51,150 nt of DNA from Psammoneis japonica (taxonomy: Eukaryota): assembly GCA_008632985.1 (NCBI GenBank), contig QPGO01000130.1, forward strand, positions 186,001 through 237,150, read 5' to 3'. A program made the position numbers and the translations under genes. Positions within the stretch are counted from its first letter, which is position 1. The number at the start of each line of letters is the position of its first letter. Below are positions 1 to 47,685 of the stretch, piece after piece. The notes below the pieces were generated by a model. The model was not told the DNA's origin, did no database searches, and worked only from the letters and a program-made list of their open reading frames with translations.

Positions 1-170
1 TCTGCACATGCTGTGTGCACACAAAAGTCATGTTTGTGCATCCACAAACTTGCAGCCATTGAGGTGCAGCAACATGACTTGCATGTCTGTTTGCACATGT
101 GCCATGTGTGCTCACAGATTGCACTCATGTGTCTACAGACTTGAAGCAATCAAGGTGCAGCAACATGACT
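1..170 (+). repeat. Degenerate tandem repeat, period about 91 bp
   Basis: AGGTGCAGCAACATGACT at 62-79 and 153-170. Upstream parts align with CA/TG swaps and TCCAC vs TCTAC. Confidence 0.7.
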
Positions 171-2295: not shown

Positions 2296-2571
2296 AGCAA
2301 ACTTTTTGTTGGGTCAAACAAAAGCTGTGGCTTGAGATGGTGGCACCACGCAGCTGGGACACCACAACAGTCAGCTGTGTTGTTGCGTGTGACAACTTCA
2401 AGAATGTGAAAGCCTTCTAAACCAACAGAGCAGAGCAAAATTTTTGTTGGGTCAAACACAAGCTGTGGCTTGAGATGGTGGCACCACGCAGCTGGGACAC
2501 CACAACAGTCAGCTGTGTTGTTGCATGTGACAACATCAAGAATGTGAAAGCCTTCTAAACCAACAGAGCAG
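2296..2571 (+). repeat. Near-perfect 138-bp tandem duplication
   Basis: Two copies of TTTTTGTTGGGTCAAAC...CCTTCTAAACCAACAGAGCAG with only a few differences. Confidence 0.95.
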
Positions 2572-3919: not shown

Positions 3920-4530
3920 CGGTGCCTTTGTGCTGCTGACACTTGCAGCGGTTGGAGCCTTTGCATCACTGCCACTTGTGGTGGTTGGGAGCCTTTGCAC
4001 TGCTGCAGAAGGATAGTTGGAGCATTTGTGCTGCTGCAGAAGGACAGCTTGGACTCTTTGCACTGTTTCAGAAATGACAGTTGGAGCCTTGGCACTGTTG
4101 CCACCTGTGGTGGTTGGAGTCTTTGCATTGCTGCCTCTTGTGGTGGTTGGGAGCCTTTACACTGCTGCAGAAGGACAGTTGGAGCCTTTGTGCTGCTGCT
4201 GCAGAAGAACAGTTGGGGCCTTTGTGCCACTTCAGAAAGGACAGTTGAGCATTGACACTGTTGCCACCTGTGGTGGTTGAAGTCTTTGCATTGCTGCCTC
4301 TTGTGGTGGTTGGGAGCCTTTGTGCTGTTGCAGAAGGATGGTCGGAGCCTTCGTGTTGCTGCAGAAGGACATTTAGATCCTTTGCACTGCTTCAGAAAGG
4401 ACGGTTGGAGCCTTTGCACCACTGCCTTGCCAGTGATGAGTGGGAGCCTTTGTGCTGCTGAAAAAGGATGGTCGCAGCCTTTGTGCTGCTTCACAAGGAC
4501 AGTTGGACCATTTGTGCTGCTTCAGAAAAG
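3920..4530 (+). repeat. Degenerate minisatellite (GTTGGAGCCTTTG.../CTGCAGAAGGA units), possibly a decayed ankyrin-like repeat gene
   Basis: Many imperfect copies of (G)TTGG(G)AGCCTTTG(C/T) and GCAGAAGGA. One frame reads AAEGHLDPLHCFRKDGWSL. Confidence 0.7.
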
Positions 4531-5469
4531 ATGGTCAGGCAATGACAGCGCCGCTGCCGGTGGCAACACTTGTCATGAACCAGAAGCTGCAATCAAATGA
4601 CAACCATTGAAAATGATGATGAAAATTGAATGAGTGGGTTTTGCATGCAAGCCAGAATGTTGGCACATTGTCACATGTGGAAGTGATGCTGCAGTCAACA
4701 TTGAATTAGAAGAAACTTCAAATTGCAGCCTGCTGTTGTGCCATCACAGTTTCTCATGTGCTGGTTTGATGGATCTTCAAGATTGCTGCATGGAGCTGCA
4801 AAGAAACAAGCAAGCAGAATCCCACACGGTTTGTGCTGGCATGCCAAAAACTGAAACTTGACAAGCTGTCCATTCCAAGAGACTGAAACATGCTGCACAC
4901 ACAAAATCTGTGTGTCACCCATGTGCTGCAAAACACCTGACAATTGTCACAATGAAAAGCAGCTAATTTCCCATGCAATTTTTCACTCAGCCTCAACAAA
5001 AGTTCAAGAAAAGTGGCACAGTTTGATTGGCATCACGCAGAACCCACGGACTTCTTAGTGCACAAGATTCTGATGACTGGCAGACCAGGAAAAATGCCAA
5101 AATCACATCATGACATCAAGGTTGACAATGGAGTTGCTCGTCTTGTCCATGCTCTTCACAAACAATGTCACAGCTCCCAACAAACATTGCTGCTGTCAAC
5201 ACAGGCATGAGAGGCATTCCCAATCACATCGGAGATGAGTCTGTGCAACATTTGCTTGACCGCCATTGGAGCAGATGTCAGATGAGCTGCAGGGGTTGTG
5301 TTGAAGATGACAAAGGCTTCACCGCACTGAAAGGAAGCAGTGTGATGAAGATGGAAAACAAATGCAAGCTGTTGGTGGCATTTGTGGAGAGGCCTGTAAA
5401 GGCTGGCTTCCAAGCACCAGCACGGCAGAGCAAGGAGCATGCTGTCACCACGAGCTCCATGCAAATCTT

Positions 5470-6700
5470 GGATTGCGAACATGATGGCTGACATCCTCAG
5501 CTTGAATGATGTGAAGAACAAGTGCCATGTGACTTTTGACAACCGAGTGGCGGATGAGTTCCAACTGCTGGACAAGAAGACTGGCAAATGAGCCACAGTG
5601 TTCAAAGTGAATGATGTTGTGCTGCACACCTTTGCACCAAGCCAGAAATTCTTTGACTGTGCAAAAGATCTCCAAGAAAGCAAGTTGCATGTCAGCATGC
5701 TGTCAAAGAAGAGGAAAAAAAGAATGGCAAGCAACAAGAAGCACAGAAGTGCATCAGGAGCTGCAGCTCCAACAGCGGAGCAGAGTTCCACAGGCTGCAC
5801 CAAGAGAGAGAGGCAACAAGCACCAAGCAAGCACTCAGACTGCACTGCACAGCTGGAACACCCCAGAGTGAGGGATTTCAAGCTGTTCCTGTGATCCAAC
5901 CAGGTGAAAAACTTGTCCATTGCATCTGAAAATGCAAACAGAATGGCGCCCATTTGGGGTTCATCAACAGATGTGCCAAAAGGCAAGACCAAGCATGCAC
6001 ATCATCCCCATGAGAGGAATGACAAATGACATCACAGCAGTTCTGCCTGAGACACATGAGAAGCAGAGATGTGGTGCAATCCTCTGCATTGATGCTGTGG
6101 AAGCATGCAGCGTCAAGCTGCTGTTTGCAATTGACAAGATGATCAAGTGTCAATTGAGTGTGAGATTGAAGTCCAAGAAGCACGTTGATGTGTGCAATGG
6201 GCTGGACATGCAGTGTGCTGGACATGGCTCTCCAACAGCACAACATGGCTCTGCTCAAGATTGACTTTGTGGAGTGTGTTCCCAAGTTCAAGGCCATGCT
6301 GGTGGAAGTCATGGACAGTGTGAACTCAGATCTGACATGTGCAAATGCAAATGACCATGTTCCAGAAGTCAAGCAGAGCATGCAGACCACCAAGGAGTGA
6401 ACTCAAGCCACTGCACACCACATGCCGCACAAGATGACACCCAAGTTGATGTGCAAGCATGCAGTGATCAAGAACACTGTCATGCCAAACATGTGCCCCA
6501 AAAAAGAGGGGATTTCTGACACTTGCAGTCCACACAGAACCTTGATTGTGACAAACACTTTCAGCTCAAGATTGGGAAATTTGCACTTTCTCACATTGAG
6601 AATGACCCGATGAAAACCACGGATGCATGTGGCATTGACAGCACATGCCTGCAGCCATGTTTTGATTTGCCCAAGGGCAGACACTGTGCCATGAACTCTT
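5470..6700 (+). mobile_element. Decayed Ty1/copia (diatom CoDi-type) pol fragment: pre-integrase and integrase region
   Basis: Fragments DILSLNDVKNKCHVTFDN, RDFKLFL*SNQVKN, LTCANANDHVPE, MPHKMTPKLM, GISDTCSPH, NLDCDKH, ENDP...IDSTCLQP match diatom copia integrase motifs, with Tyr->Cys/His changes, stops and frameshifts. Confidence 0.75.
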
Positions 6701-7576
6701 CTAATTTGCTTTTCTTCATTCAATTCTTGCAACTAAAACATGGAGCAAATGTGCAGGACAGCAAGGACCATCACTTTTGCAGAGTTCACCAGCTCCGCAT
6801 TCAACCTGTCGTTTGATCCAGAGCCTCTCCTTGACGATCCTCGCGTCTCGCTTTCAAATTCAGTGCATCCCATTCCTGACAAGGCACCAACAACAGAAGC
6901 CAGTCTTCTAGCCTCTGAAGCTGCCAGTGCTTCAGAAGCACATTGGCAGCCAATTGACACATTGGCCCAGTCCTTCTACTTCCATGCCCACCTTGTGGCC
7001 CTTGCAGCTTGTTGCAGCATTTAGTCTGCAGCCAACTCCTGTTAACGCATTTTTCTGTTTTAAGACCAAGCTTTGCAAGTGTCGCAACTACATCCACTCA
7101 AATTTGGCCGGATTGCCTTCCTGCAAAAAAGGCATCGCACACACAGTCGGCAAAGGCCACTTGAGAACTGCGAATCACTTTTTAACTGGTGAAGCCGCGT
7201 TGCTTCTTCCACAGAAAACGAGCCAGCCTTTCTTTGTCGCCCAACATCAGCCTCTCGTGGAAACTGGTATTAACTAAAAAGCCATTATAAAGAATGAAGG
7301 AGAGAGGAGAAGACACTATTACAATAATGCGTAATCTCCCTCTCCAAAACCCTACTGTAGGCCTAGGAATACTCAATATAACATGCAAAGTCCTCTCACG
7401 TTTCTTTGTTTTTTGTTGTTTTGAGCCCTTTTTTCAACTGCAACGGATTCAAAAAAGTGCAATTATTTCTTCAAGAATCACCATCAAATTATGCATGCCC
7501 ACCGAAACCCATGTAAAATACTCAAGATATCATGCATCAGCCACACCGTGAAACACATGCAGTATGCAGGCATGCA

Positions 7577-9469: not shown

Positions 9470-11410
9470 AGTATTCAGTTATGTACAGCCTATAAAGAAT
9501 GGAAGGGAACAGCAGCGAGGGAGGCACGGCGCCGTACGGCCGGAACACTCCCAGCTTGGGAGGTCTGTAATTGGTACGGGCACGGAAGCAACTGCAGTGG
9601 CGGTGGAGTAGAACGGGTGAAAACACAAGACGTAGGGCATTTGGTCGATGGGATAGGAGATGAAGGAGCAGGAAGAGAGGAAGCAAATTGGAGGGCGTGC
9701 ATGGAGAGGTGAAGGACCACATTGTAGCTAAAAGCTTGAAGAGCCCATTGGGAGGGAGTGGCAGTGCGACAAGTGCTGCCAAAGCGGTCGGAGGACAGGC
9801 GACACCATGCGAAGTCAGCGAATGGGAGAAGAGCAGATGGAGAGGACAAGGCACAGAGAAAGGCAGAGCAGGAAGCATTGAAGTTCCCCAAAAGTCAGAA
9901 GGAGAGGACCAGGGAGGTTTGGGTTGGGATCGGATGGAGGAAAATGTGGAGCCAAAGAGAAGACGGTGAGCAAAAAATCCAAGACCACCAAGGTGATCAA
10001 CGGTGAAAGGGAGAAGGAAGATGCCATCATTGTTGAACAAAGCAACAATGAGGGATCCATTGGCAGATGAAGTGGAGGGGGCCATGGGACTTCAGTCTCG
10101 TGCTTGTGTGGTGTGCCTCAGTTAGAATGGGGGAAGAGGGGGGGCAGGCAGACCAGGGGGGTGAGAGGGAGCTTGGGGTGCATTGACATCGACCGCAATG
10201 CAGTGGTGGTGGGAAGGAGCTGAAAGCAAAGCAGGGGGAGGGATGGAAATGCCAACACCGGCAGGGTGGAGGAGCGGATGGGTGGAGAGCAGATTCAAAG
10301 GCTCAAGATGAACATCATTGGGAGAATGACAGAGCTGAGCAAGGGGCCCCAAAGTTTGGGCTAGGATGAAGAGGGTGTCACGAAGGCTGTTGGAGAGCTT
10401 GGATTTGTTGGTGCGATGGCAAGAGAAGGTGTGGTTGCCACAGGTGCAAAGGGTGGCATGGCCACAAGGACAGGGTGCATTGACAAGGGAGGAAGGAAGG
10501 ATGGGAAGGCGGAGCTTGCATTTGACGGCAATGACGCAGGCGTCAGAAGGAAGGCGGGAGCTCTGGAAGCGTCGGGAAAAGGAATGAAGAGGGAGGCTGG
10601 CAAGCAGGGACAGCAGCAAAGGCAGAGAAACTTGCACTTTGGAGGGAGCATCAGTGAGGGTGGAAGCAACGACCTGTTGCTGGTGGTCATGGTAAAGTTG
10701 GCGGGCTGGGCCGGGAAGAGCAGCTGACTTAACTGGAGCAGCCAGGGAGGCAGGATAGAGAGGTTGTGCTAAGAGGACAGAGACAGCTGGAAACAGTGCA
10801 GAAGGGGAACAGCAAGAATGCCTGATGGCAGTTTGATGCCATGGGATGCAAAGCAAAATGAGTGGAGGAGAGACATGATGAATGATGGGATGGCAGTGGC
10901 CATTGGATTGCAGAGGCCAAGGCCACCAAGCAATGCCAGAAGGAAGGTCATGTGGTTGGGAAGAGGAGCAGCATGGGAGGCAGCATGGCAGAGAAATCAA
11001 TGAATGATGGTGAAAAGGGAGTCTTGAAAGGAAGAGGTCTCCAAAGGAAGGGATCAGAGGGATTGTCAGGGTCAAAGTTGTGACAGAAGTCAGCACCAAG
11101 AAGGTGGGCAGAGGAAGGAGTGAAGCAGTGTTTGAAAAGTTGACCTTGGGTTTGTTTGTCATGAAGGTGAGTGAGGAGCATGTCAACTTTATGAGAGAGA
11201 GTCAAGGAAATGTCGGAGAGAAAGGAGTTGGCAAAGTCTTAAGAGCCAAGAGGCTGGCAAAGGAAGTGGACACCAGAGATGAGCTTGGAGTTGTGTTTGC
11301 AGGGTTGAGACAGGAGAGAGTGGCACAGAGAGGGTTGGCTCAGGATGGGGAAAGAGCAGGGAAGGGGCAAACACCAGCAATGGAGGTGAGAATCTTGGTT
11401 TTGTCACCTT
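9470..11410 (-). mobile_element. 3' part of a CRE-like (RLE-type) non-LTR retrotransposon, decayed
   Basis: GGLGLxxP RT-thumb motif, then CPCG...G(D)HxxSC...RD...EP...(R)PA(D)V...IAVDV zinc-knuckle/RLE motifs, then LLPFTVDHLGGLG. Frameshifted. Confidence 0.65.
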
Positions 11411-14400
11411 CGTAGAAGTGTTCGTATGCACTTGTGTGTGTGCGGAGTGCATGGGCAGTCACCACAGGCCACAGACTCCAATCTCGAATGCAAACAGTCT
11501 GACATTAAAACCCAATGGTTTGGCCTGGGAAATTTTCATTCCTAATGTGAACAATCCCCCAGGGACCCAACAGCACTGCAGTTGACACAGGGTGGGTTTG
11601 GGGAATTTTAAAAGACTGAGACAACTCAACAGAGCTTGTGACACAAGACAATGATTGTCACAGCATCATCAACAACTTTCAAAGTCATTGAAAAATGACT
11701 GTTGACCATTGCAAAATTGAGTTCACTGAACATCACACACACAGCCGAAAGAATTGACAAATCCGTCTGGTCATCCTCAATCCAAATTTCGCGTGCCACA
11801 CGCACTCACCACTCTGACTCCAAGGACCAACAAACAATGATGCATTGAACCCCAAGTCCTCACCACAGGTTGCAGATTCCAATCTTGAACATGAATGGTC
11901 TGACATTAAAACCTGGTGGTTTGGCCTGGGAATTTTCGTTCCCAATGTGAACACCCCCCCCAGGGACCCGACAGTGCTGCAGTTGATGTGCCATCATGAC
12001 TCACTTGCAAAATTGCTTTAATCTGATTGCTGAACTCTACACTGCTCAAGTGAAGAGAGTGAATGATGGCAGTTGTGCCATCAACTGCGCTTGACATGGA
12101 CCGTTGTTGGCGCAAGTGGTTTGGAGTTTGCAATGGTTGCAGATTCTTGGGTCTTCTGGGTTGGGGTCTGGAATCACAAAGAAATGTTGGTGTTTGATCA
12201 TTTGCAAAGAGATGTTGACACTGAATTGTTGAACTCATTCTCTGATGCATCAGAGAAAGGCATTTGAAGACCATCTGCCAATCAGCATGATCAAGCAAAC
12301 AGGTGCTTGTGCAAGACACATTGCCACAGCTGCTCCCAAACAAATGGAGTGAGCTCTGATTTCATGAGCTTTGCATCCCAACTCATCTTTGCCTGTCACT
12401 GTTGCTGCTGCTTGCATCTAAGACAGGATGATGAAAGAGGATGGAGAGTGCAGTTTTCCATCGGCACAGATGGTGCACGCTGGGGAGTCTGGAGCAGAGC
12501 CTGGATGGGACAGCACATGACAGACCACTGCTGCCCATGTGTGGACTGGACAGAGCAGGTTGTCCCCAGTGCAAAACATTGTGATGGTGTTGCATCTCTC
12601 ATCATTCTTTTGGCATTTGAAGGTGATGAAGATGGTGTCAGCCAAGGCCAAGTCTGGATCTTTGTGCTGAAGCTTGGTGTTGTCCTGGAAGAAGCAGAGA
12701 TTCTTGAGGGTCAGAAGTTTGGTTCATTGGTTGCCTTTGGTCTTGAAGTGCTTGCAAGAGTGCATGATGAAGAACCAAGCTCCGACAGTCAGTTGGCTTG
12801 TGGCAACGTCATCACACATCATTTGGTTTTGGGACAAAGCTTGGAGGAGAGAGGCGGTGATCACTTTCTGCTGCTCCTGTTGTCCGTCTCATTGGTTTTT
12901 GCAGCCTTGACACTGGTGGAGTAAAAGGTGCGAGGTTTGTCCATCCTTGTCCAACCTTGGGTCCTTCCTGTTGCAAGACCTGAAGGTCGATGAGCCATGC
13001 CACATCATCCACGGCAACTCCAATGGTCCCTGCCACCAGTGTGTCAAATCATTCTGCTGAGAAGTGTCCTTCTTGCACAGCTGCTGTGAAGGCTCCAAGA
13101 GTGCAGTGTTGTTGGGTGATGGTGAGTTCGTTCATTGCCAAGAAACTTCTCCCAGCGGGTGAAAGAGCTGCGTCTCACTTCTTGTTGGTTTCTTCCACAC
13201 TTGCTTGTTGATGAGCATCTTTGGCGCCAAGGAGGTCAGCCAAGAAACAATTTCATTGGGCAGTGGCAAGATGCAAAAACTTTGAGGAACCTGCTTGGGT
13301 GCAACATGGCAAAGCAAACAGATGAGTGTGTCATCGGATGAGTTTCCGTCTCCGGACAGACAATCGCTGGTGACATTCTTCTTTCCAGGGAACCACTGGC
13401 TGAAGGAATTAACAGATGCAAATTGACGGGCAATCTCCATTTGCTCTGGGTCAGATTCTTTGTCAAAGTTGGATTTCTGCAGCCAGCTGGAGGCTGTGGC
13501 ACTGTCGCCTTGGGAGAGGACACATGAAAGATGAAAGTGGTGGTGGGTTTGCCTTTGATGGAGTCGATCCAGGGACATGTGACACTGGAAATGAATTCCT
13601 TGGTGTTTGGTGTGAGGCTGTGTGCCAGGTGTTGTGGGAGTTAAAATCGGAAAGCCCACCCAGCTGTGATGTTGCAGCCGCCAATGCCGTGTTCCGATGC
13701 ATCGGATCGACAGATGTGTGTTGGCTTGCGGCAAGTGACGAGGTTTGGGCTGACACCATTTTGAGCTTGTTTGAGGAAATTTGTCCAGAGTCTTGCATCT
13801 TTAATCTCTGATGGTTTTAATTTACACCATCTCCTGTTTTCCAAGTGCATCACAAGTCGATGGAGCCGACTTAGAAAATGGCGAGCGTGTGGGATGATTT
13901 GTCCCACAGATGGTTGAGCCAGCCGACAAATTGCTCGATTTCTTTGAAAAAGCATCCTCCTTTTTTGATGAGAGATTGGAGTTGGTTGGACCAAGCAACA
14001 AGTTCATGTTCTGTCAGAGAGATGCTCATGTGACGGGCGTCCAACAACCAACAGAGCACTGTCTTGAGTTCTTCAAGTCATCCTTTGGTGAAGAGTTTCT
14101 TCAAGCAGGTGAGACCATCTCATGTTGGGTGTTCTTTGGGTGAACTGGTCAGCCAATGGCATGAATCCCTGACAGTGCTGCCACTTCTTCTCGTTTGACA
14201 TTGTTGTTTGGGTCGGGTTTGACTGTGTGGCTGTGTTGTCCATGCAGACATCGACGACGCCATTGTCGTTGGATGGGATCTTGACTGTGAATTCAAGAGC
14301 TGGAGCAAATGGTGAATCATTGCTTTTACAGCAAGGAGAAGGGAGGTGGTCTTGAACTGGGTTTTGCAAAGCAGATGGGGCACCGGACTTGCATTGGAGG

Positions 14401-14700
14401 ATGTCGTTGGACAAATCGCAAGCAGATGTTCGGAGATGTCGCCTCACAAGTTTGGGTTTGGCTTGCCTCCAAAGGTGAGTCGGAGGGCCAGAAGGGCTGG
14501 ATCATCCAAAGTGACAATCATTTGGACTGTGGTGTCACTGTCCAGATGGCCATGATGGCAGGCTGATTTGCAATCAATCTTCTGGATCAGGGCCTGGGTT
14601 TGTGGGTGATGCAAGAAGCGGGCTGACACATGCAATGGATCAGGTGGCAAAGCATGTTTCCACACAACATGCAGGGAGTGAGTTCTTCGGAGATGACTCT
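9730..14700. other. TpA-depleted (hypermutated) repeat domain 2
   Basis: TA nearly absent, CG reduced, TG/CA excess. Covers the LINE and the YR retroelement. Confidence 0.85.
11462..11988 (-). repeat. Pair of about 125-bp direct repeats (11462-11586 and 11861-11988) at the 3' end of the YR element
   Basis: Shared GTCTGACATTAAAACC, TGGTTTGGCCTGGGAA, AATGTGAACA, CCCCCAGGGACCC. Arrangement fits the B1-A2-B2 split direct repeats of Ngaro/PAT elements. Confidence 0.85.
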
Positions 14701-14860
14701 GGAGTTCACTTAAGTCCCTGAACTGAATTTGAAGGATTGTTCATGGGCAAAGAGTTTGGATGGTGCTGCTTCCCCTTGTTCATTTGTTGATCGTGTCTTG
14801 TTCGGCAACTCCCAGTGGACAGACCGCCACTGCGATTCTCGCTCGCAGTAAGTGGCGACA
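11462..14860 (-). mobile_element. Tyrosine-recombinase retrotransposon (Ngaro/DIRS-like), 5'-truncated and decayed: RT, RNase H, YR
   Basis: RT: KIDCKSAC, LRLTFGGKPNP, VDVCMDN (YxDD). RNase H: RSDASEHGIGG, GDSATA, SQWFPGKKNVTSDCLS. YR: ITFKCQKN, LCPV, HSI..GAAVAM, GRWSSNAFL. Confidence 0.85.
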
Positions 14861-14866
14861 CCCAAA

Positions 14867-15199
14867 GTACGACAAATTGCAAAACAATTGCGCGATACAC
14901 GTGCCCGAAGGTCGAATATCGTTGCCCGAAGCAACATTCTTCCTTCGCGCAGATGTCCATTCTACATAGTACATGGTATTGATAATCTTATTGTAGTCGC
15001 ATGAGTCGTTGAAGTAATTTCATCAATGACCTCTGTGGTACTGTGCTACGTGATCTACACAAATCGGACATTCTCGAATAAATGCTGGTATATTTTCTAC
15101 AGTACGGTCTCTACGTGCGCGAAGCTCGAATTTCGTGCCCGAAGCAACAATCACCCTTCGGGCACGTGTATCGCGCAATTGTTCAGCAATTCGTAGTAC
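14867..15199. mobile_element. MITE-like element with about 45-bp terminal inverted repeats
   Basis: 14867-14911 is the reverse complement of 15155-15199, with perfect core AACAATTGCGCGATACACGTGCCCGAAGG. Internal direct repeat TGCCCGAAGCAACA. No clean TSD. Confidence 0.65.
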
Positions 15200-28279: not shown

Positions 28280-31200
28280 TCCCCCACTTGCCCGATTTCG
28301 AAAAACTGAAAGCGTTTGTCTCATCCTTGTCGCCCACAGCTTCTCCTGCAGCCAAGTTGTCAACATCGATAAATCCAAAATTGTCCAAAATGCAGCACTG
28401 CATGCATCACAAATCCAAACAACCCCATCTCAAACAAGCCATGTGCACTGGCACAAAAATCACGTGGAAATTTCGCGCAGAAAAAATTGTGAAAATTGGG
28501 GTTTGGGCCGATTTTTTTCTCGTGCTTCTGCCGTGCTTCTCTGCTCCACCGACACCTCAAGGAATCGTTTTCCCCTGAAACCATTGACACTTTACATGAT
28601 GACTTTTGGGGCACAAGTGACACGATTCTGTGCGCGAACACTTCAAAACTCCATTTTCAGAAACTCGGCCAACACTTCACCACGGTGCCACCACCGCAAA
28701 CATTTTCCAATGATGGAATTTTGCCAAACAGTGGACATCGTTGTGTTTGTCACAAAAAAGCAAGTGCACAAAGTGTCGGCCGTTGTGACTGAAATCGATT
28801 CCTTGAGGTCGTGGCCCATTTTTCGCAAAGCACGGGAAAAGCGCGACGAGCAAGACATTCCGCGCGAATTTTCTACGTGAGTTTTGTGCCAGAAATGGGC
28901 CCAAACCCTGTTTTTTTGGGGTTCATGCTGCAGCCCCTGCACTGGATCACCATGGAACTGTGGGAAAGTCCAAAAGTGTGGGGCAGCATCAAAATCACGC
29001 AGAAACTGCGATCGCACTTCGCCGCGCTAAAACGAGAAATGTTGAGACGGCTTGAAATGCACCACAGCCATCAATCGTGACGCACTCTTCTTTGACAAGT
29101 CATCACATTGTTGCCAAACCAACGCTCCTCTGTGTGAAAGATGGGTCCAAAGGGTGCTCATCTTGTTCTTTGGAAGACTGCAAAGCTTCCTCTTGATTTG
29201 ATGCTGCCGGTCATCCAAGAAGCAGCAAAAAGGGGTTGTTTGGAACGACAAACTCGAGCAGCGGCAGAGAGCATCGAGGTCGACTCCTCTCCCCCAAGAC
29301 AACGATTGAAGACAGTGCTTGATGCGAATCTGTCAGCACGCGAGCATGCTGGCAACCGCTCATCATTCCTCCCAGAGCATGCTGTCTTTCACGTGGCCAA
29401 GGCTCTGTCTGAGAAACTGTGCGACGTTCACATTGTCTGCAACCATCCGACGAACTGTCATGCCTCCAAGCGTGCCTCTTGCAGACGCCGTGCTGAAGCT
29501 GAAAAGGCCAAGACTCGGCTCTTCATTGCTCAATCTAATTTGCAGAGTCTCCTTGGAGCTGAAAGCGTTGAAAGTCCGGCAGACCATGCGGAGCAAGTGG
29601 ACAAGGCCCAGAAGAAGATCCGCAGCCTAGAAAGCATGCTGGGTCGCGGGTTGACACCGGATTTTCACACAAATCTTGTGAGCATGGTGGAAGAACATGA
29701 TCCACAGGGGAAAGGAGTGGTCTCCATTGTCACTGCACCAATGCAGGTGGACCCGTGTGTTGCAAAATTGGTTGTCAACTTGGGTGCCGATGCAATTGCG
29801 TCGGGTGACTCAGATTTCTCGATGCACGTCGGTCCAAATGGACTGGATGTTGTGATCAAAGACATCTCTGTTTCGAAAATGAAGGATCCCATTGCAGCAT
29901 GTCGGCTTTGCACTGGTCAGCAAAAGATTGCTGAGATTGTCGAGGAGACTCTGAGTGTGAAATTGGGGCACTCGCCATTTGAAAAAGACAAAGATGCCAA
30001 ACGCGATGGCCAAACTCCAGGCCACCCAATGTTCAGTGGGGTTGATGGAAAATTTCACAAAGCTCTGAACCATCCAAAGGAGCTGCCGTCCGGCTCGAGC
30101 AATCAACGACAGAAATCTCACCAAATCCGACTGTTCAAGCGGCGCGAGTGGACTGATCGCATGGGCCTGGGAAGAGCACGTGGCAAAGGAGAGCTCAGGC
30201 ATTGTGACGAGCACCCAACAGAAATGGTGAAAGGAAAGTCAATGAAGTGCAACAAGGAGCATGTGCCCATCAAAGCATTTGAAGCACCAAAGCCAATTGG
30301 GTCTCAGAAGAGCTTTCACTCACCTCCAAGAACTGACTCTGATGGACTGGGGACTGACCGAGAAATGCTCCGCCATGTCATCAATGCAAGTGCTCAAGAA
30401 TCTGTCTTGTCTGTTCAGACGCATCATGCGCTTGTACAAGAAGGATTGCGTGAGAGCAAAAAAACTTCTTCGCAAAAGGAAGCAACAGCCGGTGAGAATG
30501 CTGCAGGTTGATGCCATGACAAACCAAAGATCGGGCTCTTCTCACTCACTCCCAAGGAAGTGAAGCGTCGCATGGGATTTTTGAATTTGAAGCATCTTCT
30601 TGAGCACAGTGCAGTGGTGCATGGCGGCAATTTGGATGAAATGATGAAGACGGCAACCCACACGACTTTTGTTGAAGAGCTCCTCTTCACGTGCGAATTT
30701 TCATTTGGCCGAACAATGGCACGTTGGGAGGACTGGGAGAGGGAGCATGGTGCAGATCACAAGATGTTGGGAAAGGCGCTAAAATGCTGATTGAAGAAGG
30801 AGTTGGAGTGCCGTGAGCAATGGCCAATGCATGCATCATACGACGAGGATGTGAAGTTCCGGAAGCGCCAGTGGGACCGACACTTTAACCCCAAAGATGG
30901 CCACCGACCTGTGGTGCATGATGCGTCCAATGCACACACGGGAGACCCGAGCTCTGGGGATGTGAATCGATCGCTGCACAATGTGTGTTGTGGAATGTGC
31001 TGCGCCAAAGCTGGAATTGCCGCACAGCTCTGCAACTGGATTTTTGGCCTTCCTCTTGTCACAGGCCATTGTGATGATGACCAGCAGATTCGATTCACAA
31101 AGATGCTTGAGCCACAAAAACGTTTTGCTGAGAATGACAATCCTGCAGGAGGAGAGGGCACAATTGTGAAGCACTTCTTGAACACATTTGACAAAGGATG

Positions 31201-37700: not shown

Positions 37701-38530
37701 GGTTATACCGGAACTCTCGTGTCTCGTGTGTTCTGAGTTTTTTTTTTGTTGGTTCACACGGCGGGCAATGTTGCAACGGCTAGGGCCCTACCAGCTACCA
37801 GCGATACAGTGCTGCGGTTACAGTAAACGGAATAGTCGTCCGTGCTCTACATGAACAACATGTATGTATCTACATATGTATGTACAGTATGTACGAAGTA
37901 TGCATGTGTTACTGTACCGTTATGGACGTTATGATGTGTTTCATTTTTTGAATCACGTTTTGTCGAAACGCCACCTTTTGCTCAAACATGTCATGTTTGA
38001 GCAAACAGCAAGTTTGAGCAATTGCTCAAACATGCATGCGCCGGTGCTGCAAAACTGCCGTGCAGTGCTGCACAGCGTGACTGCCACTTTCACTGCATGC
38101 AGATGTCAGTGCAAAATGAACACAAAGGAAACAAGAAGAGCTCACAGTCGTCAGAGAAAACAACACAATCGCAGCCATCACACCATGGTGATGCCAATGA
38201 CGATTTCTCAACAACAACACCTTCAAGAAACCCAACAATCTGACAAAAGACATGCCACACAAACTTGCACATGATGATGTTGAAAGCTCCGGTGGGGCAG
38301 GCTCGCTGGGGGGAGCTGTGGCAACAAACAAGGAACAGCGTCATGCGACAACATTGTTTTGTCTTTTGTTTTGATCACAAACATTTTTCAAAGCATGCCT
38401 TGGCATTGACATGCACTGCAATGTTGGCGTTTGTTGCTCCCAGTCAAAGATGCGGCAAACAGATCACCAGCGCAGCCGCTGTCTTTGTGTCATCACAGGC
38501 CATGCATCGTCATGCTGAACAACATGACCG

Positions 38531-38935
38531 AGTGATGAGAGTTCATGTTTCTGATCTGTGGCACAGGTTGGTCATGCACATGATTTTGCTGTTGGTGTTT
38601 GTCAGAGTTTTGGCCCTCTTTCTTTGCTCATGGACCATTGGGTTTGCTGTGCCGATGTCCTTTGGTCCATCATTTTGGTCCACCTTTTTTGGTCATTGTC
38701 CAGTCTGCACTTTTCTTGTGGACCTGGCACCAAAATGGCATCTTTTCTCTCTTTGACTTTTTTGGTTGCTTTTGGAGCCCCCTTCTCCTCTTCTCACTTC
38801 TTGCAAAATTTTGTGTTCTTGAGGACCAGAGTCACTTTGACAGCTCTCTTGCTGTTGAGGCTTTCATGCTGTTTGGACAATCATTGTCACCACACCCCAG
38901 CTTGTGCTGTTGTCTGGCTCATTTCCATGGCTGTG
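38531..38935 (+). repeat. 5' LTR (approximate ends)
   Basis: Aligns along its length with 44854-45256, e.g. CCTGGCACCAAAATGGCATCTTTTCTCTCTTTGACTTTTTTGGT. Confidence 0.9.
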
Positions 38936-41900
38936 AGCTCAAGTGTTGCCATTGCTTTGAGTTGAGTCTTTTGAATCAAAACAAAGTGAAACCTCTGATT
39001 TTGCAAAAATTGGTGATTGTTCAGCAGGATCAGGCAACATCCTGGTTGGGGACGATGACCCCAATCCATTTGGGGATGATGCATCAGATGATTTGAGTGG
39101 TGAGTCTGGTCAAGATTCTCAAGGGTGTTTCTTGGCCTCTTGAGGAGGATCAAGCAATGCTGCTGCGGCAGTTGTTCCTTGAGTTGGTGGCATTGTCAAT
39201 GACATTGCTTGGACCGGTGGTCTGTGAGGAGTTGTTGATCCACACGCTGTGGCATGCAGTCCGCATTGCCAATGTCCAACGTTGTTCCATCATTCAACAA
39301 CAATTGTGCCCCATTGTTGGAAAGGTTTGGAGTTGAAGATCAATGCTGGCAAGGATTGCAAGGTGACTCTCATCAGTTGGACCAACTCTGTTGGCAAACA
39401 CCTTTTCATGAGTGGTGTGCCTGGACTTGGTGCTTCACATCCAGAGGAGAGATCCAAGGACAGGGGCACCTCAAGAGTTGAATCTTGCAATGGATTGTGG
39501 TTTGTTGGACCTGCAAGAAGTTAAAGATCATGTTCAAGACTTGCTCACAATGGGTGACCAATGTGATCATCAGAACTTGCTGTGGTCCACAGAGTTCTTT
39601 CTTGGCTCTGTTGGTGTTGCTCCACATGGTGACATCCAAAAGTGCATCAATGGACCTGCGCATGGGCTCATCATTTGCAAGCTTGTCACTGCTGAGTTGC
39701 ATTTGTCTGCTGCATCAGCTCTCCATGCGGTGGTGGACAAACTCAAGGCTGTGAAACTCAAGGAAGAACCAGGTGAGAACATCAAAAACTGTGCTGCAAA
39801 GGCAGTTGAATTGTGCAGATGTCTGGAAGGTCATCATGAGCTTCCTGAAGATGCTGCTTCAATCCTTTGCAGTGGTCTCATGACATTGACTGTCAAGTCA
39901 TTCTGGATCAATTCATGTCTCTCTTCAATGAAGTTGACATGGATCCAACAAAACATGCTTGTGGCAGCCAATCTTGTTGTGTGTGCAAATGAGTCATGCA
40001 CCAGTTTGGTGGATCGCAAAGAATGGGCACCTTTAAATGCAGGCAAGTCTGGCTCCACTGCATTTCTAAACTGCCCTCCACTGCAGAACAACAACAGTCA
40101 AGGAGGCAACAGTGGACACATGGAAAATGCCAAGGTCATGGTGGACACAGTGGTTGTGGAGATCAAGGCAGATGAGGATGTGGTCAAGGAGGTCATTGTA
40201 ATTCTTGACAATGCTGGAACACTTGCAGTCCCAGAGACCCTCACAGGATTCCTCCAAGACATGGAGAATCTCATGCTTGAGTCTCCAATGGCATGACCAA
40301 GCATTGGTGTGGCAGGTGTGGGTGTTGGGCCACTCATGAAACTGCCAATCATTCAGCTCCAGAGGGAGGCACTGATGCAAATGGTCAGAGTGCCACTGGC
40401 ACTGCTCAAGACTGATCCAAGGGTTGCACCTTGAATGCCAATGAGTGTCATGTCTCTTGGGGCCTTTTGTGCATGGTTCTGGTGCCACTCAAGCTTCCCA
40501 AGAATGTGCTTTGACCTGGAACACATTGAATTGGATTTTTGTGGGTTGTGCTTTGGTGCACAACTTGCCAAACTGGTGGGCCAGTGGATTGTTGGTTTGC
40601 TGTTCACAAAGCACCCCATTCTCTTTAACCAACTGTTCCAGAAGGCTCAACAAACAATGTTTTGTTTGACATTCTGTCATCAATTTTTCCATGTGTTGGT
40701 GATTGCTTTGATGTTTGTTGGGGTTTGTCAAGAAGTGCTGCGGCCAAGATCTTCCAAGAAACGTCATGCGACTGTTCAAGAAATCAAATGTCTGCATGAC
40801 AAAGCACCAGACTTTGATTTTAAACAATGCTGTCCTTGTTGTGATGAGTCAACTCACAAGATCATAAACCAAGATTTGGATCTGCCTGCTTCAAATGTTG
40901 TGTCGTGCATGCTCACATGCCATTTTGTGAATGTTGATTTGTGGGAACAAGTTGATCATCTTCTGATGTCCTTTTCATCCCCTCAAGACAAGCGATTTGA
41001 GATCTCATTTGATTGTGGGGCAAGTGCAACTTCCACTTTTGACAAGGAAGATTTTGCACCTGGAACTTTCAAGCCATTTGACAACACTGAGCCACTTCCT
41101 TCTTCTTCAGATGTCAGATGTCATGTTGATGTTAAAGGTGTGGAAGTTGTTGAGTGGATGGTGTTTGATGATGCCGGATGTGAGTGATGTGTCTGCACTG
41201 AGTGCTTTTGCATTTCAACCTCTCCTGTGAAGTTGTTGAGTGTTGCTCATCATGGGCACAACAAGAATGGCAGCGGCTTGGGCTGCAGGCTCAAAAAGGA
41301 TCATGCATTCTTTCATTGGCATGATGGCAGTGCTGTTGCCATGCCTCATCATGAAACTGACAGGCTTCCCATCACAATTGGAAGGAATCCTTTTTTGGCA
41401 GTGAACCAGAAGAAATGCATCTGTGCATGCATGACAGACAAATTCAACCACAATTTGTCACAGAAGCAAAAGAGACTGTTGCGGTGGCACTTTTGCTTTG
41501 GTCATCTTGGCTTTGATCACATTGAATGGTCAGTCAGGAAAGAGTGCCTTGGACATGCTGCAAGAAATGTCAGCTCTGTCACTGTCAACAATCCCAAGTG
41601 TGCCACTTGTCAACATGGTTGAATGACTCATCATCTGACCAGGACTGTGCAAACTGAGAAGGTTCTCAGTTGGGATCAATCTCTCAAGACTGACATTCTT
41701 CATCCTGGACAAGCAGTTGCTGCAGACCAGCATGTGTCCTCCATTCAAGGTCATCTGTTTGAGTCCCACAGGAAGACCAAAAAGGCAGACAAATGTGGCG
41801 GCAGAACTGTTTTTGTTGACATTGCATCCAGCAAGGTGTCAGTTTATCCTCAGGTCATGTCCAGTGCTTTCAAAACTGTCAAGAGCAAAACAGCTTTCAT

Positions 41901-44468
41901 GAGAGAGGCTGTTTCTGCTGGAGTTTCTATTCAAGCATGTCAATCAGATGATGGCATCTTTGTGAGTGAAAAATTCCTTAAGGAAATTGAGGAAAAAGGT
42001 CAGGGTGGGAAGCTGGCTGGTGTTGGCACACTCCATCAGAATGCTGTTGTCGAGCAAGCAATTTGCACTGTTGCTGAAAGGGCAAGAACTGTGATGTTTC
42101 ACACTGCAGATTGATGGCCAGATGCAGCAGAGTTGGATTTGTGGCCCATGGCCATGAGTCATTCTGTCCACTTGTGGAACTTGACCCCACAATTGGATTT
42201 TGATGGATCATGTCCCAAAGAAGTCTTCACGGAAGTGAAAGTTTCTCACAGTTCAACCCTCACAAATTGGCAGTTTGGGGATGCCTGACCTGTGTGTTGG
42301 ATCCAACATTGCAAGATGGCAAGAAAATTCCATGTTGGAAGGCCCAAAGTTGCAGAGGACAGTTCATGGGTCACTTGTCTGTCCATGCAAGCAATGTTGG
42401 TTTAATCCAAAACCTCAAGAGCAGTTCTACATTGCCTCCATTCCATGTTGTTTGCAACAATTGGTTTGAGATGGTTCACTCGGATGATGAGCGGAGGCCA
42501 CCACGCAATTGGTTGGACCTCCTCACCACTTTGAGATGTTGTGTGGATGCCAATGATGGCTTGGCATTGCCTCCATTGTCAGATGATTGGCTCGCTGCTG
42601 AAGAATTGCACAATCAACCACATGCCAAACAGGAAGAGTCAAGGAGGCAATGACAAGCATGAGTGTTGGTGCAGATAGAACAGAGGGAGAGGATGCCTGG
42701 ATTGCCTGGGGCACCTTCTTCTTCTCAAAGATGATCCAATGCTCCTGGATGGTTGAGTGTTCCATGTTCTGATGATGCTTCACCAGATCTTCCATTGTCT
42801 CCAGATTGCATTTATGATGAAGTCGCTCCTCCAATGTTGAATCTCCTTTGGCTCCAGCTGACATGACAGAGGCTCCAGAGGGAGACTGCAGAGTTCCCAG
42901 ATCTCAAAAAGTGCCTTTGACCACCAATGATGATGACCATTTCCCAGAAGCTCCAGATGCCACAACTCTGATTCAGACATGCTCTGGAAGAATGGCTTGT
43001 TCTCCAGATTGTTGTGGCTGTGAAGGAACAAATGAACATGGTTGTGATGGGCATGCTCTCAAGGCGTGGCTTTTTTCATTTCCAACTTAACTTGTTGGTT
43101 CAAGTCTGGTTGCAGCACAGTGGCATTTGCAAAGATTCACACAATGTTTGCTGACCTCGACAGTGATGGCATCGATGCTGCACATCCACTGTCGGCACAT
43201 TTGTTGGATTCTTTTGCAAGCAAGAAGACTCGCAATCCTGATGCTCCTTCACATCATGAAGCAGTGGCAAGGCCATGTGTGGAAGAGTTCAAGAAAACCA
43301 TGCATTCTGAGATTAATGACTTGATGTGATGCAATTCATTTGCTCCAGTGCTGCTGCATGAGTTGGTGCCATCAAATGCAAATGTTTTGCCTGGTGCTTG
43401 GGCATTTAAGATCAAGAGACACCCTGATGGATGTCTCAAGAAGTTCAAGGCGCGGTTTTGCATGCAAGGGAACCATCAACAAGAAGGGGTTGATTTCTTT
43501 GAGACTCACACTCCAGTGGTCCAGCAGAGCATGGTTTGGTTGCTCGTGAGTCTGTCAAATCTGTGCAGATTGGCATCTTGTCCAGTTCATTGTGTCTTTG
43601 CTTCTGCTCAGGCAGAAGTTGAAGAGGATGTTTGTGTTGAATTACCCAAGCTCTGTGAGATGGAACATGAAGGTGACTGCATTTTAAAGCTCAACAAGAG
43701 CTCACATGGATTGCATCAAGCCACAGCTGCATGGTTCCAGCATCTGTCCAAGGGTCTGGAAGAGGTCAGATTGCACTCCAGCAAGAATGATCCATGTTTG
43801 TTCATTGGCAAAGATGTTGTTTGTTTTGTGTGTGTTGATGATTGTTTGTTCTTTGTAAAGGATCTTACAAAAATCAATTGTGTTGTGAGTGAAGTCAAGG
43901 CCAATGATTGTGAACTTGACATCAAGGACAATGCAAGAATGGTTTTCTTGGCATTGACATTGATGGGGACAATGAGGCTGGGACTGTCCATCTCACTCAA
44001 AAGGGTCTCATCAAAAAGATCATTGCTGCTGTGAACATGGAGGATTGTCATGTCAAGAAGACTCCGGCCAGCTCAGCTCCTTTGGCTGCTGATGCTGACA
44101 GATCCGAGCAAGTCAAATCATGGATCCACGCAAGTTTCATTGGCAGCATGCTCCATTTGGCTTCCAATGCAAGGCCTGATGTCCAACGTGTGGTTCACAG
44201 CTGTGCCAGGTTCAAGCACAATCTCAAGAACAGCCATGAGGAAGTGGTGAAGTGGATTGTTGGGTGTCTTCAAGGCATGAAGGATCTCTCAGGCAATGAG
44301 AGTTCCACCACCCATGAAAGAGCTTGTCAAAGAGGCTTCTTCTTTGATGAGCATCTGAAATGTTGTTCCACTCTGCCAGTTTTGAGGATGACAACAGTGC
44401 TTTGATGTTGGCAACAATGCCAAAGATGACTCCATGCACCAAGAACATCAGGGTCAAGTGTCCCTTTT

Positions 44469-44516
44469 CAAGTCTCATGTTTCAAAACCTGACAAGTCTC
44501 ATGTTTCAAAACCTGA
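44469..44516 (+). repeat. Perfect 24-bp tandem duplication in the copia RNase H region
   Basis: CAAGTCTCATGTTTCAAAACCTGA twice. Confidence 0.95.
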
Positions 44517-44853
44517 CTCTGTGATTTGCACTCAGAAGATTGCCAGTGAAGAGCAGTGGGCTGACACTTTGACAAAGGGTTTGGTGCAAGAGAAGTTTGA
44601 TTGTTTGTGGAAGAAGGTTGTGGGGTGTTGAGATGTGGTGGATTCATTCATGTGCATGTTGATTTGAGTTAAAATGCATGTGTTGCACACAAAAAATGGG
44701 GTGATGGTGATCAGGTGTGATGACTGGGGTTGTTGCATCTCTGCATGTGGTTTCATGTCATTGCATGATGGGTTGTGTTTTGGTGCAAACTTTGTTTTGA
44801 AATCTCAGTGGGACAATCTGACATCTTGAAGTCAACATCTTCTCAAGAGGGAG

Positions 44854-45256
44854 AGCAACAAGAGCTCCAGTTTCTGATCTGTGATGTGGGTTGGTGATGC
44901 ACGCGATTTTGCTGTTTTGGTGTTTGTGAGAGTTTTGGTCCTCTTTCTTTGCTTGTGGACTGTTGAGTTTTATGTGCCAATGTCTTTTGGTCCATCATTT
45001 TGGTCCACTTTTTGGTCATTGTCCAATCTACACTTTTCTCATGTGCCTGGCACCAAAATGGCATCTTTTCTCTCTTTGACTTTTTTGGTCACTTTTAGAG
45101 CTCCCTTCTCCTCTTCTCACTTCTTGTGGATTTTCATGTTCATGAGGACCAGGATCACTTCAACAGCTCTCTTAACATTGAGCAGGCTCACATGCCATTT
45201 AGGCAATTGTTGTCACCCCAGCTCATGCTGTTGTCCGGCTCATTTCCGTGACTGTG
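44854..45256 (+). repeat. 3' LTR (approximate ends)
   Basis: Immediately follows the polypurine tract and aligns with the 5' LTR. Confidence 0.9.
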
Positions 45257-46299
45257 CATGTTTGAGCAATTGCTCAGCTCAAACTCTTGGTTGGACAAAA
45301 AGCCAAGACTGGAACTCTTGGTTGTGACCATCAAATGTTGCTTGGTGTTGTGTTCTTGCTCATGTCCATTGTGATTGTGCACATGCACATGTTTGAGCAG
45401 TTTTCCCACATGGTGCTGCTTGCCTGCCTGCCTGCTGGCCTGCCTGCATCATGGCCGACCGCAAGCAAAAAACAGGTCTGTCCTCTTCCAACCAGTCTGT
45501 CCTCTTGCAAGAGCAAACTTTGTAAACCCACTCTAAGAGTGGCTTCCCATTGTTTCACATGCAAAACCCACCTGCTAAAATGGTCAGAAGGTCAACAGAG
45601 ATCTTTGTGAAAACAGCGGCATAAAAGAGTGTTGCATCATAGCACAATCAGGGGCCAATGATGGAACATCACCATTTTCTGTAAAAAATCCATGGTGTGA
45701 GAATTTACAGAGATTTTTCTGGGATCAGTTTGATCATCAATTGTCACCATTGTTGTGTGCTTTCAATGTTGTCCATTTCAAATTCAAAATTGCATCTCTG
45801 AAAGACCACCCTCTTGCTCACTGCAACCACCACATCAAGCCCTCCACAGTGTTGTGTCCTTGTTGTTCATCATGGCATCAAAGCAACTGCCTCATCTGGC
45901 CCACCACAGTGCATCCTCTTTGATTGTCGCATCAACAAAAGACTCTGATGATCAAAACAAAAGCAGCCTGCACCCATGATCTGGTTGCCTGGCAAGCTCC
46001 TTCAAAAAAAGCTACAATGAAGGTTGTCAAGACTGCAAAAGCAAAACCTGCCACATGGATTCATTCCAGGATTGGCACTCAGCCACAACTTCAAAAAGGA
46101 TGACGTGTGCAATGCACTCAAGAAATAAAAACAGGTGGCTGCCAATGCAAGTGAGTTGCACACCATGCCGGTGCTGCCACATCACAAACTCCTTCACCAG
46201 TCATCACTCCATCAACTTCTGTAAAACATGCCAAGGGAGGCAGACCCAAAAGAGCCACAGCAAAAGCAGCCACATAAAAGCAAGCAAACACCAGTGCAG

Positions 46300-46800
46300 C
46301 ACATGTGCACGCAACTGAAGACCTCCTCAGGAGACATCACGAGTCCTCAAAAAAACTTCCCCTGGGCACTCTAGACCAAATTGTTGCCCAAGCAAAACAA
46401 AAGCATTTTTTGGATGATGAAGTCACACTGTCCAAACACACAACAAACAAACAAACAAACAAACAAGCACTCCAAAATGAGTCAAACCCACAAGGTCTCC
46501 ATTCACAGTGGCTCCACTGAAACCCACACCAGTCAAGCACTTGATGGTGTTGCAGCTGTGTCAAGTCACTGTTGAAACAGAAAGAGTTTCTTGAAGCTGC
46601 CAACTTCCTCATCAAAGGATCCGAGATGGAGAAAGAAGTGGTCAAATGGAGCAGGAAAACTGTGGCTGGGGGAACCATCCAATGAAGACAATCCATTGGT
46701 CAAGCTGGGATCCAAGTGCTGCCAGGGCTTCATGAAATGGACAAGGATGAATTGGCAACAAAACAAAATTAACTTGTACAAAGGTGCCAAAAGGCAGAGG
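46300..46800 (+). mobile_element. Decayed pogo/Tc5-like transposase N-terminal (HTH) fragment
   Basis: KLPLGTLDQIVAQAKQKH, LKQKEFLEAANFLIKG, KLGSKCCQGFMK resemble CENP-B-type HTH regions of diatom pogo-like transposases (recognised by motif only). Confidence 0.45.
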
Positions 46801-47685
46801 ACAGTTTGGTTTTTTACTTGCAGCATGCATGCCTGCCTGCCTGTGACCTGTCTGCCTTGCCTGCCCACCTGAGCCCTGCCCACCTGAGCCCTGCCCCCAG
46901 TGTTCCTGTGCTCTCCACTGGCAGTGGCTCTGGCAGAGCAGCCACCAGAGCAGAGCCAGGGCCCTGCTGTGCAGCATTGCAGGCTGCAGGGCTGGGCCCT
47001 CCAGCTGCTGCCCCCTCCCCCCCCCCAGAGTGCACTTGCCCCCTCCCTGCTGCCTCAGAGGCGGGCCCTGGCATGGCTCCTGTCTCCAGGTTTTCCTGCC
47101 TCAGGAGTGGCTGTGGTTGTTGTGCTGCTGCTGGTGGTGGTTGCTGTGGCAGTTGTGCTAGATGGACGGGCATCGTGCTGGCACTTTGGGCATTTGTGGG
47201 GCACATTGTGTGTTTTTGCCCCTGGCTGCTGAGCGGCTCTTCGATTTCATTGAAAAGGCATCTGTGGCAGAAAATGAAAGGGGTGGGGTTTTCCCATGAA
47301 TGAAGCAGTGGTGGAAGGTGTCCTGTGCCTGGTGATGGCATTTAAACTGTCTCTTGGGCTTGCTGCAAGCTCTTTAGAAGAATGTTTGAAGCAGTCGATG
47401 GGCAATGAGGTATCTCATGTTTGTAACCATTCATTAGGCTTTCAATGAACTCAGGGGCAACGGATTCTTGCTATCAGGAACTACGAATTTCAACGGAAAT
47501 AATAATTTATCATGTTACAACGCTTTACTTTATTCAATAATTTTTTTCATAATATTATCTTCCGTTGGAAATTTCGAATTTTTTTGAAATCATAAGAACG
47601 GGAGAGAGAGAGCAGGTTTTTTTTCTCATCTTCCCTTCTCGCACTTGCTTGTCTTTTATGCGAGGAACGGATGAAAGAGTGCGCA

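Follow-up and report, generated by a model that had tools for sequence, protein, structure and literature searches.

Hypermutation confined to TpA (TA below) has been described in the rhizarian Bigelowiella natans, where it strikes integrated nucleocytoplasmic large DNA virus (NCLDV) and virophage DNA (Mettrop et al., 10.64898/2026.01.13.699255). According to the part of that report available to us, A>G and T>C changes arise de novo at TpA in integrated viral DNA about 1000-fold over background, the process is active in a subset of lines, TpA-poor transposon-like genes are also seen, and an ADAT2-type deaminase is proposed, not shown. Here we analyse a stretch of 51,150 nucleotides from the pennate diatom Psammoneis japonica (contig QPGO01000130.1, positions 186,001 to 237,150), hereafter the window, and in it a decayed Ty1/copia long terminal repeat (LTR) retrotransposon of 6719 bp (38531-45249) that is strongly depleted of TA. 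Related elements were sought in the 91.4 Mb genome (597 contigs).

Judged by its sequence spectrum, the diatom process appears to match the TpA hypermutation of B. natans. As in the available account of that species, A>G and T>C are confined to TA, both TG and CA are produced, the change is heritable and lies in integrated chromosomal DNA (sister LTRs and target-site duplications differ), and it is local to foreign or mobile DNA, as seen here from the profile of the observed/expected ratio (O/E) of TA and its sharp edge at 37930. The differences lie in the host, a stramenopile, in the targets, namely LTR retrotransposons and other repeats, in a loss near saturation (O/E about 0.05, against 0.45 in the B. 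natans NCLDV region), and in a slower CG decay that accompanies it; the bias for a 3′ pyrimidine and the apparent sparing of the initial part of the 5′ LTR described below are not reported in the same part of that account. The diatom lineage, the transposon targets, the near saturation, the coupled CG decay and the measured context are thus new, while hypermutation of this type is not. A mutational defence with a single earlier record, from the viral inserts of Bigelowiella, is thereby extended to transposons in a distantly related lineage.

Repeat-induced point mutation (RIP) of ascomycetes, which is homology-triggered, premeiotic and RID-dependent, is likewise repeat-restricted, consists of dinucleotide-specific transitions with sharp borders, and ruins transposons. 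RIP changes C to T and makes TA from CA and TG, whereas the diatom process removes TA, to a 17-fold depletion in the window element. In the available part of the diatom literature, transposable elements bear DNMT5-dependent methylation (PMC9998398); the CpG decay that goes with it fits CG→TG/CA on both strands and cannot remove TA. No report of TpA loss in a diatom was found in the literature searched, which covered few subscription journals.

Loss of TA in the window element and its relatives

The comparisons below describe a process that acts after insertion and on both strands, converts TA to TG or CA, takes TA before CG and TAY before TAR (Y, pyrimidine; R, purine), is sharply restricted to repeats, and is patchy between sister LTRs. 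We put the probability of this description at about 0.93.

The window element has 28 TA where 489 are expected (O/E about 0.06) and 42 CG where 349 are expected. The direction of change can be read from its coding remnants. At 14 sites where tyrosine is conserved in 12 homologues, the element has no Tyr at all, and instead shows 7 Cys (TGY), 3 His (CAY), 3 Phe and 1 Trp, while other conserved residues are mostly kept (Trp 8/10, Cys 7/9, His 10/12, Asp 22/32). Across 30 genomic reverse transcriptase (RT) loci, some of which overlap, TA O/E spans 0.77 to 0.02; seven combine TA of at most 0.10 with CG above 0.5, and the reverse pattern occurs in none. When the TA-rich copy L025 is set against its relative L023, only 20 of 168 TA are kept (70 became CA and 68 TG), as against 124 of 162 CG, and the pair L026 and L043 gives 2 of 144 TA (69 CA, 68 TG, 5 CG) and 93 of 159 CG. 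The bias is absent when the two TA-rich copies, L025 and L026, are compared with each other (TA 91/158, CG 101/153). Eighty metagenome relatives have TA O/E of 0.27-0.78, none near the depletion of the window element; one of the two search patterns required the RT motif to contain Tyr or Trp, so intact copies were favoured. One related copia sequence among the metagenome contigs (JAAUXZ010084910.1) has TA O/E 0.27 and CG 0.23, with 33 YTAR and 17 RTAY; this skew among surviving TA may point to the same process outside this species.

Sister LTRs of younger elements

Fourteen elements with long RT frames were taken from the genome, of which 13 were used (L059 was left out, its LTR being truncated at the end of the retrieved sequence). 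They form two families of 8 and 5 copies, 94-97% identical within each family, and every copy has lost 25-68% of the family's TA sites. A tally of LTR-pair differences by dinucleotide, which the earlier note on this DNA had proposed as a check, gave 129 mismatches in 3495 columns (TA/TG 43, TA/CA 41, TG/CA 13 sites, TA/CG 1 site, CG/TG 7, CG/CA 3), only 7 being of any other kind. The family LTR columns have TA at the 13 TG/CA swap sites, which were accordingly assigned to TA. Per target base, A in TA changes at a rate of 0.169, C in CG at 0.014 and other sites at 0.0019, so that TA is hit about 12 times as fast as CG and about 90 times as fast as the remaining sites. Sister LTRs are struck unevenly (chi-square 74.4, 13 degrees of freedom), with 16 vs. 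2 TA kept in L055 and 10 vs. 0 in L065.

Both derived states occur in both LTRs (5′: 13 CA, 11 TG; 3′: 34 CA, 26 TG), which bears out action on both strands. Target-site duplications (TSDs) are perfect in 10 of the 13 elements, L066 carries a TA/CA difference (ATAAG/GCAAG), and two are unresolved. In the window, the TSDs differ by CG/TG, and the non-LTR repeat in which the element sits is itself TA-free. The presence of both products in both LTRs, the altered TSDs and the TA-free surrounding repeat together place the change in the chromosome and not in reverse transcription, as the earlier note had held; the two-way TG/CA swaps of the window pair, described below, agree with this. Editing during the life cycle of the element, either A-to-I editing of its RNA or editing of the cDNA during reverse transcription, could draw on the greater number of derived changes in the 3′ LTRs of the young pairs (60 vs. 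24). RNA editing, however, should yield TG on the sense strand only, and cDNA editing, in the standard scheme, should leave one product in one LTR and the other product in its sister; neither explains changes in TSDs, which are host DNA, nor TA loss in a repeat without LTRs. We give life-cycle editing very little credence.

Around the 13 young elements, TA O/E runs from 0.46 to 0.35 in 200-bp bins out to 1 kb, and spreading into the flanks was rejected since no dip appears beside the LTRs. Two DNA runs from a single sample gave contigs in which transitions predominate (282 of 348 places in X1); alleles and paralogues are inseparable in these contigs, and the run is possibly the assembly's source.

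The LTR pair of the window

The earlier note had started from the window's own LTRs. Every motif pair it quoted is present at, or no more than 1 base from, the place given, and its left boundary (38531) is correct; its right boundary, 45256, runs through the TSD, as the 3′ LTR stops at 45249. In the alignment of the two LTRs, 63 of 391 ungapped columns differ (52 transitions, 11 transversions), in addition to 12 gap columns. The concentration of differences at TA, CG, TG and CA steps is real: 39 transitions fall in the 156 pyrimidine-purine columns and 13 in the 235 others (Fisher p 4e-8), although 24 of the 63 mismatches lie outside such steps. Where both LTRs have a pyrimidine-purine step, TG/CA differences number 15 (9 in one direction, 6 in the other), TA/TG 4, TA/CA 0, CG/CA 3 and CG/TG 2. 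Random scatter of the differences (5000 trials) gave 1.3-1.4 TG/CA swaps (maximum 7) and 22 +/- 3 pyrimidine-purine transitions (maximum 36). A TG/CA swap arises when a palindromic TA or CG is struck on opposite strands in the two LTRs, and the source of the 15 swaps could be either.

The view of the pair as "direct" evidence for TA→TG, on the other hand, lacks support. It is old and saturated and offers four TA/TG sites, so it cannot by itself polarise TA against TG. At one of the four, 38773, all six other LTR copies have TG, and the TA there may be newly made; two of the four show three states (TA, TG and CA) across the copies. Polarisation by family is weak as well, all seven LTR copies being decayed, with TA present in 8 of 77 columns, CG in 11 and both in none. 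The 5′ LTR has further copies at five other genome loci, which share flanks in pairs and so probably represent one or two insertions. The paired copies (L003/L005 and L004/L006, on contigs C7, C68 and C131) show 17-26 differences in about 400 columns; these pairs are later duplications or haplotypes and could serve as a second time layer. The statement that tracts without target sites are identical for over 40 bp holds for a single tract (44 bp, 38723-38766), which contains 4 TG and 3 CA, and the next-longest identical tracts measure 24 and 23 bp.

The direction claimed, TA to TG or CA, is nonetheless borne out by the Tyr codons, the TA-rich relatives and the younger pairs. A process of opposite polarity, in which TA would be derived by RIP-like CA→TA and TG→TA changes in intrinsically TA-poor elements, could point to site 38773 and to the relationship of diatom DNMT4 enzymes to fungal RID noted in the available part of PMC9998398. 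It would have TA O/E rise, whereas it falls to 0.06; it leaves the loss of conserved Tyr codons and the range of the metagenome relatives unexplained, and among the young elements there are single LTRs with the full set of 16 family TA sites, one of which has a sister left with 2. The young pairs, the relatives and the Tyr loss refute it as a general account, and we assign it practically no weight.

Sequence context and strand

In the young families, A>G change was found at 1000 of 4328 TA, compared with 37 of 8379 AA, 47 of 9998 CA and 26 of 11938 GA, so that change outside TA is about 50 times rarer. A 3′ pyrimidine is preferred (TAY 688/2052, 0.34; TAR 312/2276, 0.14). The rates by 3′ base (A, C, G, T) are 0.12, 0.33, 0.13 and 0.31 on the plus strand and 0.16, 0.36, 0.13 and 0.36 on the minus strand. 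A competing-risk fit gives 2.7 for C, 3.0 for T and 1.0 for G relative to A, with weaker effects of the 5′ and +2 bases. The rare A>G changes outside TA share the same bias (78/13324 before pyrimidines vs. 32/16991 before purines, p 1e-8), which suggests one A-reading catalyst. Preference for TAY over TAR predicts YTAR among the survivors, and the window element matches: 16 of its 28 remaining TA are YTAR and none is RTAY, while gene-rich DNA has 113 YTAR and 198 RTAY among 634 TA.

Two further patterns were sought and rejected. Strand-coordinated clusters, with a raw z of 2.9, vanish below 100 bp once context is controlled (z 0.4, 0.2 and 0.8), and a local link of TA loss to CG is lacking (factor 0.86 for TA within 5 bp of CG).

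Candidate chemistry

We judge it somewhat better than an even bet that the change of TA reflects adenine deamination by a TadA/ADAT2-fold enzyme acting on DNA. Such a host process would convert A to G after a 5′ T, giving TA→TG from the plus strand and TA→CA from the minus strand; the adenine would be deaminated to hypoxanthine and fixed as G at replication. The enzyme would be brought to silenced repeat chromatin, leaving many scattered single hits rather than long processive tracts, and the element would thereby lose its Tyr codons and decay, which would amount to a genome defence.

The genome encodes a TadA-like protein (L069, which matches E. coli TadA at E 1e-30) and an ADAT2-like one (L072). 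A search of it for AAG/MPG glycosylases, which excise hypoxanthine from DNA, gave no match, although this leaves their absence unproven. In the available parts of the sources, the native TadA site is UACG (10.1101/2020.12.24.424366), an engineered TadA variant prefers YAY to YAR (PMC12528748), and ADARs prefer UAG (PMC10661471), a context (TAG) that is cold in the elements of this genome. The diatom process thus resembles TadA/ADAT2 and TadA-derived base editors, as far as these accounts go, in changing A to G with a preference for 5′ T and a 3′ pyrimidine. Natural TadA, however, is a tRNA editor, and the engineered variant edits YA, while in the diatom elements CA is almost spared.

Several points weigh against adenine deamination. 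By their sequences, L069 and L072 resemble ordinary tRNA editors, and such genes would be expected in any case. Neither an expanded deaminase family nor a fusion of a deaminase with a chromatin reader was found in genome searches (9, 4 and 5 matches) or a Pfam scan; searches for a special deaminase with PF00383, PF02137 and PF14437 gave housekeeping-like genes only. TadA variants edit CA well, whereas CA>CG here (47/9998) lies about 50 times below TA>TG. Endonuclease V is present in the genome. Strand symmetry is inexact: the raw excess of TG over CA (549 vs. 451, p 0.002) follows from the coding strand being richer in TAY, and once context is controlled the strand factor is still 0.85 (p 0.019), so that symmetry holds within about 15%. 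A deaminase of single-stranded DNA would leave runs, and the only strand-coordinated excess is weak and lies beyond 100 bp (z 2.8). The context counts, moreover, take copy-by-site cells as independent and exclude 196 sites at which no copy keeps TA, and the young elements were selected for long open frames.

The strict TA specificity and the missing short strand-coordinated runs are in fact better accounted for by chemistry centred on T, or by biased repair, than by a deaminase of single-stranded DNA. A modified base at TpA, such as an oxidised thymine (5-formyluracil, which miscodes) or a methylated adenine, might be misread, or a repair enzyme like TDG or, by analogy, Vsr might always resolve T:G at TpA to C:G in silenced chromatin. 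Either route would leave the same sequence as adenine deamination. The genome encodes L071, in which a deaminase is fused to a 2-oxoglutarate (2OG)-Fe(II) dioxygenase; thymine dioxygenase is among the top solved relatives of the latter. The deaminase half of L071, however, is nearest to guanine deaminases, and the fusion seems to be metabolic; a TET/JBP search of the genome was without match, absence again being unproven, and replication errors alone are an unlikely source of an excess of about 90-fold. Overall we regard a T-centred or repair-driven origin as unlikely. The L071 gene itself (313-1785, minus strand) combines a guanine-deaminase-like domain with a DIOX_N/2OG-Fe(II) dioxygenase and probably functions in nucleobase salvage.

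TA and CG loss share the same blocks, as they would if deamination of 5-methylcytosine at CG produced T:G mismatches whose repair, involving mismatch repair and polymerase eta, introduced A>G at WA motifs (W, A or T), in the manner of somatic hypermutation. In the available parts of the sources, polymerase eta mutates WA hotspots, with TA hot on both strands (PMC7884765), and diatom transposon methylation is DNMT5-dependent (PMC9998398); the genome has five Y-family polymerase loci. WA targeting, however, predicts AA well above CA and GA, whereas AA is about equal to CA and about 50-fold under TA; the TA near CG are not hotter, and short strand-coordinated patches are absent. Error-prone patch repair is accordingly a long shot as the source of the TA loss.

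The CG decay, which gives TG and CA about ten times more slowly, is best explained as ordinary 5-methylcytosine deamination in methylated repeats, given the DNMT5-methylated transposons of diatoms and the C5-methyltransferase genes encoded in this genome. Three C5 DNA methyltransferase genes (L085, L086 and L087, on contigs C301 and C297) themselves lie in TA-poor DNA, with 16-23 TA per 3.5 kb, and are possibly parts of foreign or viral DNA that became integrated and is subject to the same TA-erasing process. A fourth (L088, on C34) has an upstream chromodomain-coding frame, as in some diatom DNMT4 proteins.

Position within the LTRs

Within the first 200 alignment columns, TA is lost at 24 of 117 site-copies in the 5′ LTRs of the young elements and at 62 of 117 in the 3′ LTRs (Fisher p 4e-7; per-element Wilcoxon p 0.037), while downstream of column 200 the two are alike (45/81 and 44/81). 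The 200-column cut was set post hoc, after the column table had been viewed, and five elements drive most of the effect; the window pair runs the opposite way, its few surviving TA lying in the 3′ LTR. As a lead, the probable promoter part of the 5′ LTR may be shielded, or targeting may follow transcription. A broader idea, on which we are doubtful, is that diatoms and chlorarachniophytes might share a natural DNA adenine-deaminase defence, a "reverse RIP", in which a TAY-preferring TadA/ADAT-fold enzyme would be steered to transposon chromatin, set in some 200 bp into the 5′ LTR, near the expected onset of transcription, as AID does in antibody genes, and erase TA from both strands until the element is dead. 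If true, engineered adenine base editors would have a natural counterpart that acts on the chromosomes of its own eukaryotic host. For base-editing work, a DNA adenine deaminase occurring in nature would be of interest, and the fingerprint of TAY over TAR with CA nearly untouched could be used for screening candidate enzymes.

Consequences for dating and annotation

The inflation of LTR-based dates anticipated in the earlier note is supported. In the young pairs, Kimura two-parameter distance is 0.038 over all columns and 0.0038 outside pyrimidine-purine steps, an inflation of about 10-fold (range 5-25, given only 7 other changes). In the window pair it is 0.189 vs. 0.110, or 0.089 with the transversion denominator corrected (1.7-2.1-fold), and two other old pairs of the window family give 1.6-2.6-fold. 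Since sister LTRs of one age are unequally struck, far more so than binomial sampling would produce, the error is not a constant factor. Published diatom LTR ages, in the parts of the sources available, are computed from sister-LTR or consensus divergence at a constant rate (PMC5485032; 10.1101/2025.10.24.684338); the available text of the latter lacks the terms "TpA" and "dinucleotide", and that of the former lacks "dinucleotide". In genomes with TA erasure, young elements would be dated about 10-fold and old elements about 2-fold too old, and not in a clock-like manner. Homology searches and gene prediction in repeats would likewise be misled by Tyr-free, TA-poor frames.

The element and its setting

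The features of the element are collected in Table 1. Intact homologues align across 40981-44285, and where these have a YVDD motif in RT the window element has CVDD. The frame 41188-41619 gives a weak GAG-pre-integrase match (PF13976, E 0.00095), under the cut-off of that family. The probable primer-binding site has one other copy that reads GGTTATGAGCTCAAG; a search with one exact pattern matched no primer tRNA, and there are no tRNA genes within the window. As in other Ty1/copia elements, an RVT_2 RT lies downstream of the integrase region, with direct LTRs, a polypurine tract and a 5-bp TSD. Canonical LTR termini are TG...CA, usual though not obligatory in Ty1/copia, unlike those of the window element; AGTC...AGT/ACT termini with perfect 5-bp TSDs occur in 10 of the 13 young elements. 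Three copia families in all (the window's and those of L053-L066) share AG...GT or AG...CT termini, 5-bp TSDs and GG after the 5′ LTR.

Table 1. Coordinates of the window element and of the repeat and block that contain it.
Feature	Positions	Strand	Remarks
Whole TA-/CG-poor block	37931..47340	.	From 1-kb TA O/E and TA positions
Host repeat, left part	37947..38525	.	TA-free; palindromic end motifs; 62 genome matches
Left TSD	38526..38530	+	GACCG; CG/TG difference from right copy
5′ LTR	38531..38928	+	398 bp; termini AG...AT; 0 TA, 1 CG
Probable primer-binding site	38929..38943	+	GGCTGTGAGCTCAAG; by its place after the 5′ LTR; conserved in other 5′ LTR copies
Broken pol, protease/integrase-like of copia polyproteins	40981..42833	+	tblastn of homologues P0001/P0003
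Broken copia-type RT	43240..44285	+	PF07727 RVT_2, E 4.5e-24; homologues
Polypurine tract	44845..44853	+	AAGAGGGAG; directly 5′ of the 3′ LTR
3′ LTR	44854..45249	+	396 bp; termini AG...GT; 5 TA, 4 CG
Right TSD	45250..45254	+	GACTG; left copy GACCG
Host repeat, right part	45255..45420	.	Right flank also matched by 7/14 other copies

The repeat in which the element is inserted is non-coding and dispersed over at least 30 places in the genome, with end motifs TTTGCTCAAACATG...TTTGAGCAA. It is probably similar to a miniature inverted-repeat transposable element, possibly a non-autonomous DNA transposon. The TA-poor block has 1-kb TA O/E of 0.00-0.15, compared with 0.3-0.6 in most gene-rich kilobases. 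Its left edge is sharp and lies beside a TA-normal gene: the last TA is at 37930, the repeat starts near 37947, and no TA occurs from 37931 up to the LTR. The right edge lies near 47340. The nearest named relatives of a neighbouring host gene are proteins of Nitzschia, Bacillariaceae, Pseudo-nitzschia and Seminavis, which marks the host as a pennate diatom.

Further TA-poor blocks of the window lie at 1-7000, 10001-15000 and 29001-31000. The last has TA O/E of 0.05-0.07 with CG still at 0.7, and holds two frames (457 and 296 aa) without Pfam match; for the frame at 29138-30508 all Atlas leads scored below 0.8, an XPG-type nuclease among them at 0.76. Short elements with inverted repeats of 45 bp (14867-15199) and 35 bp (28448-28892) edge TA-poor blocks, and the second of these has a very high summed contig depth.

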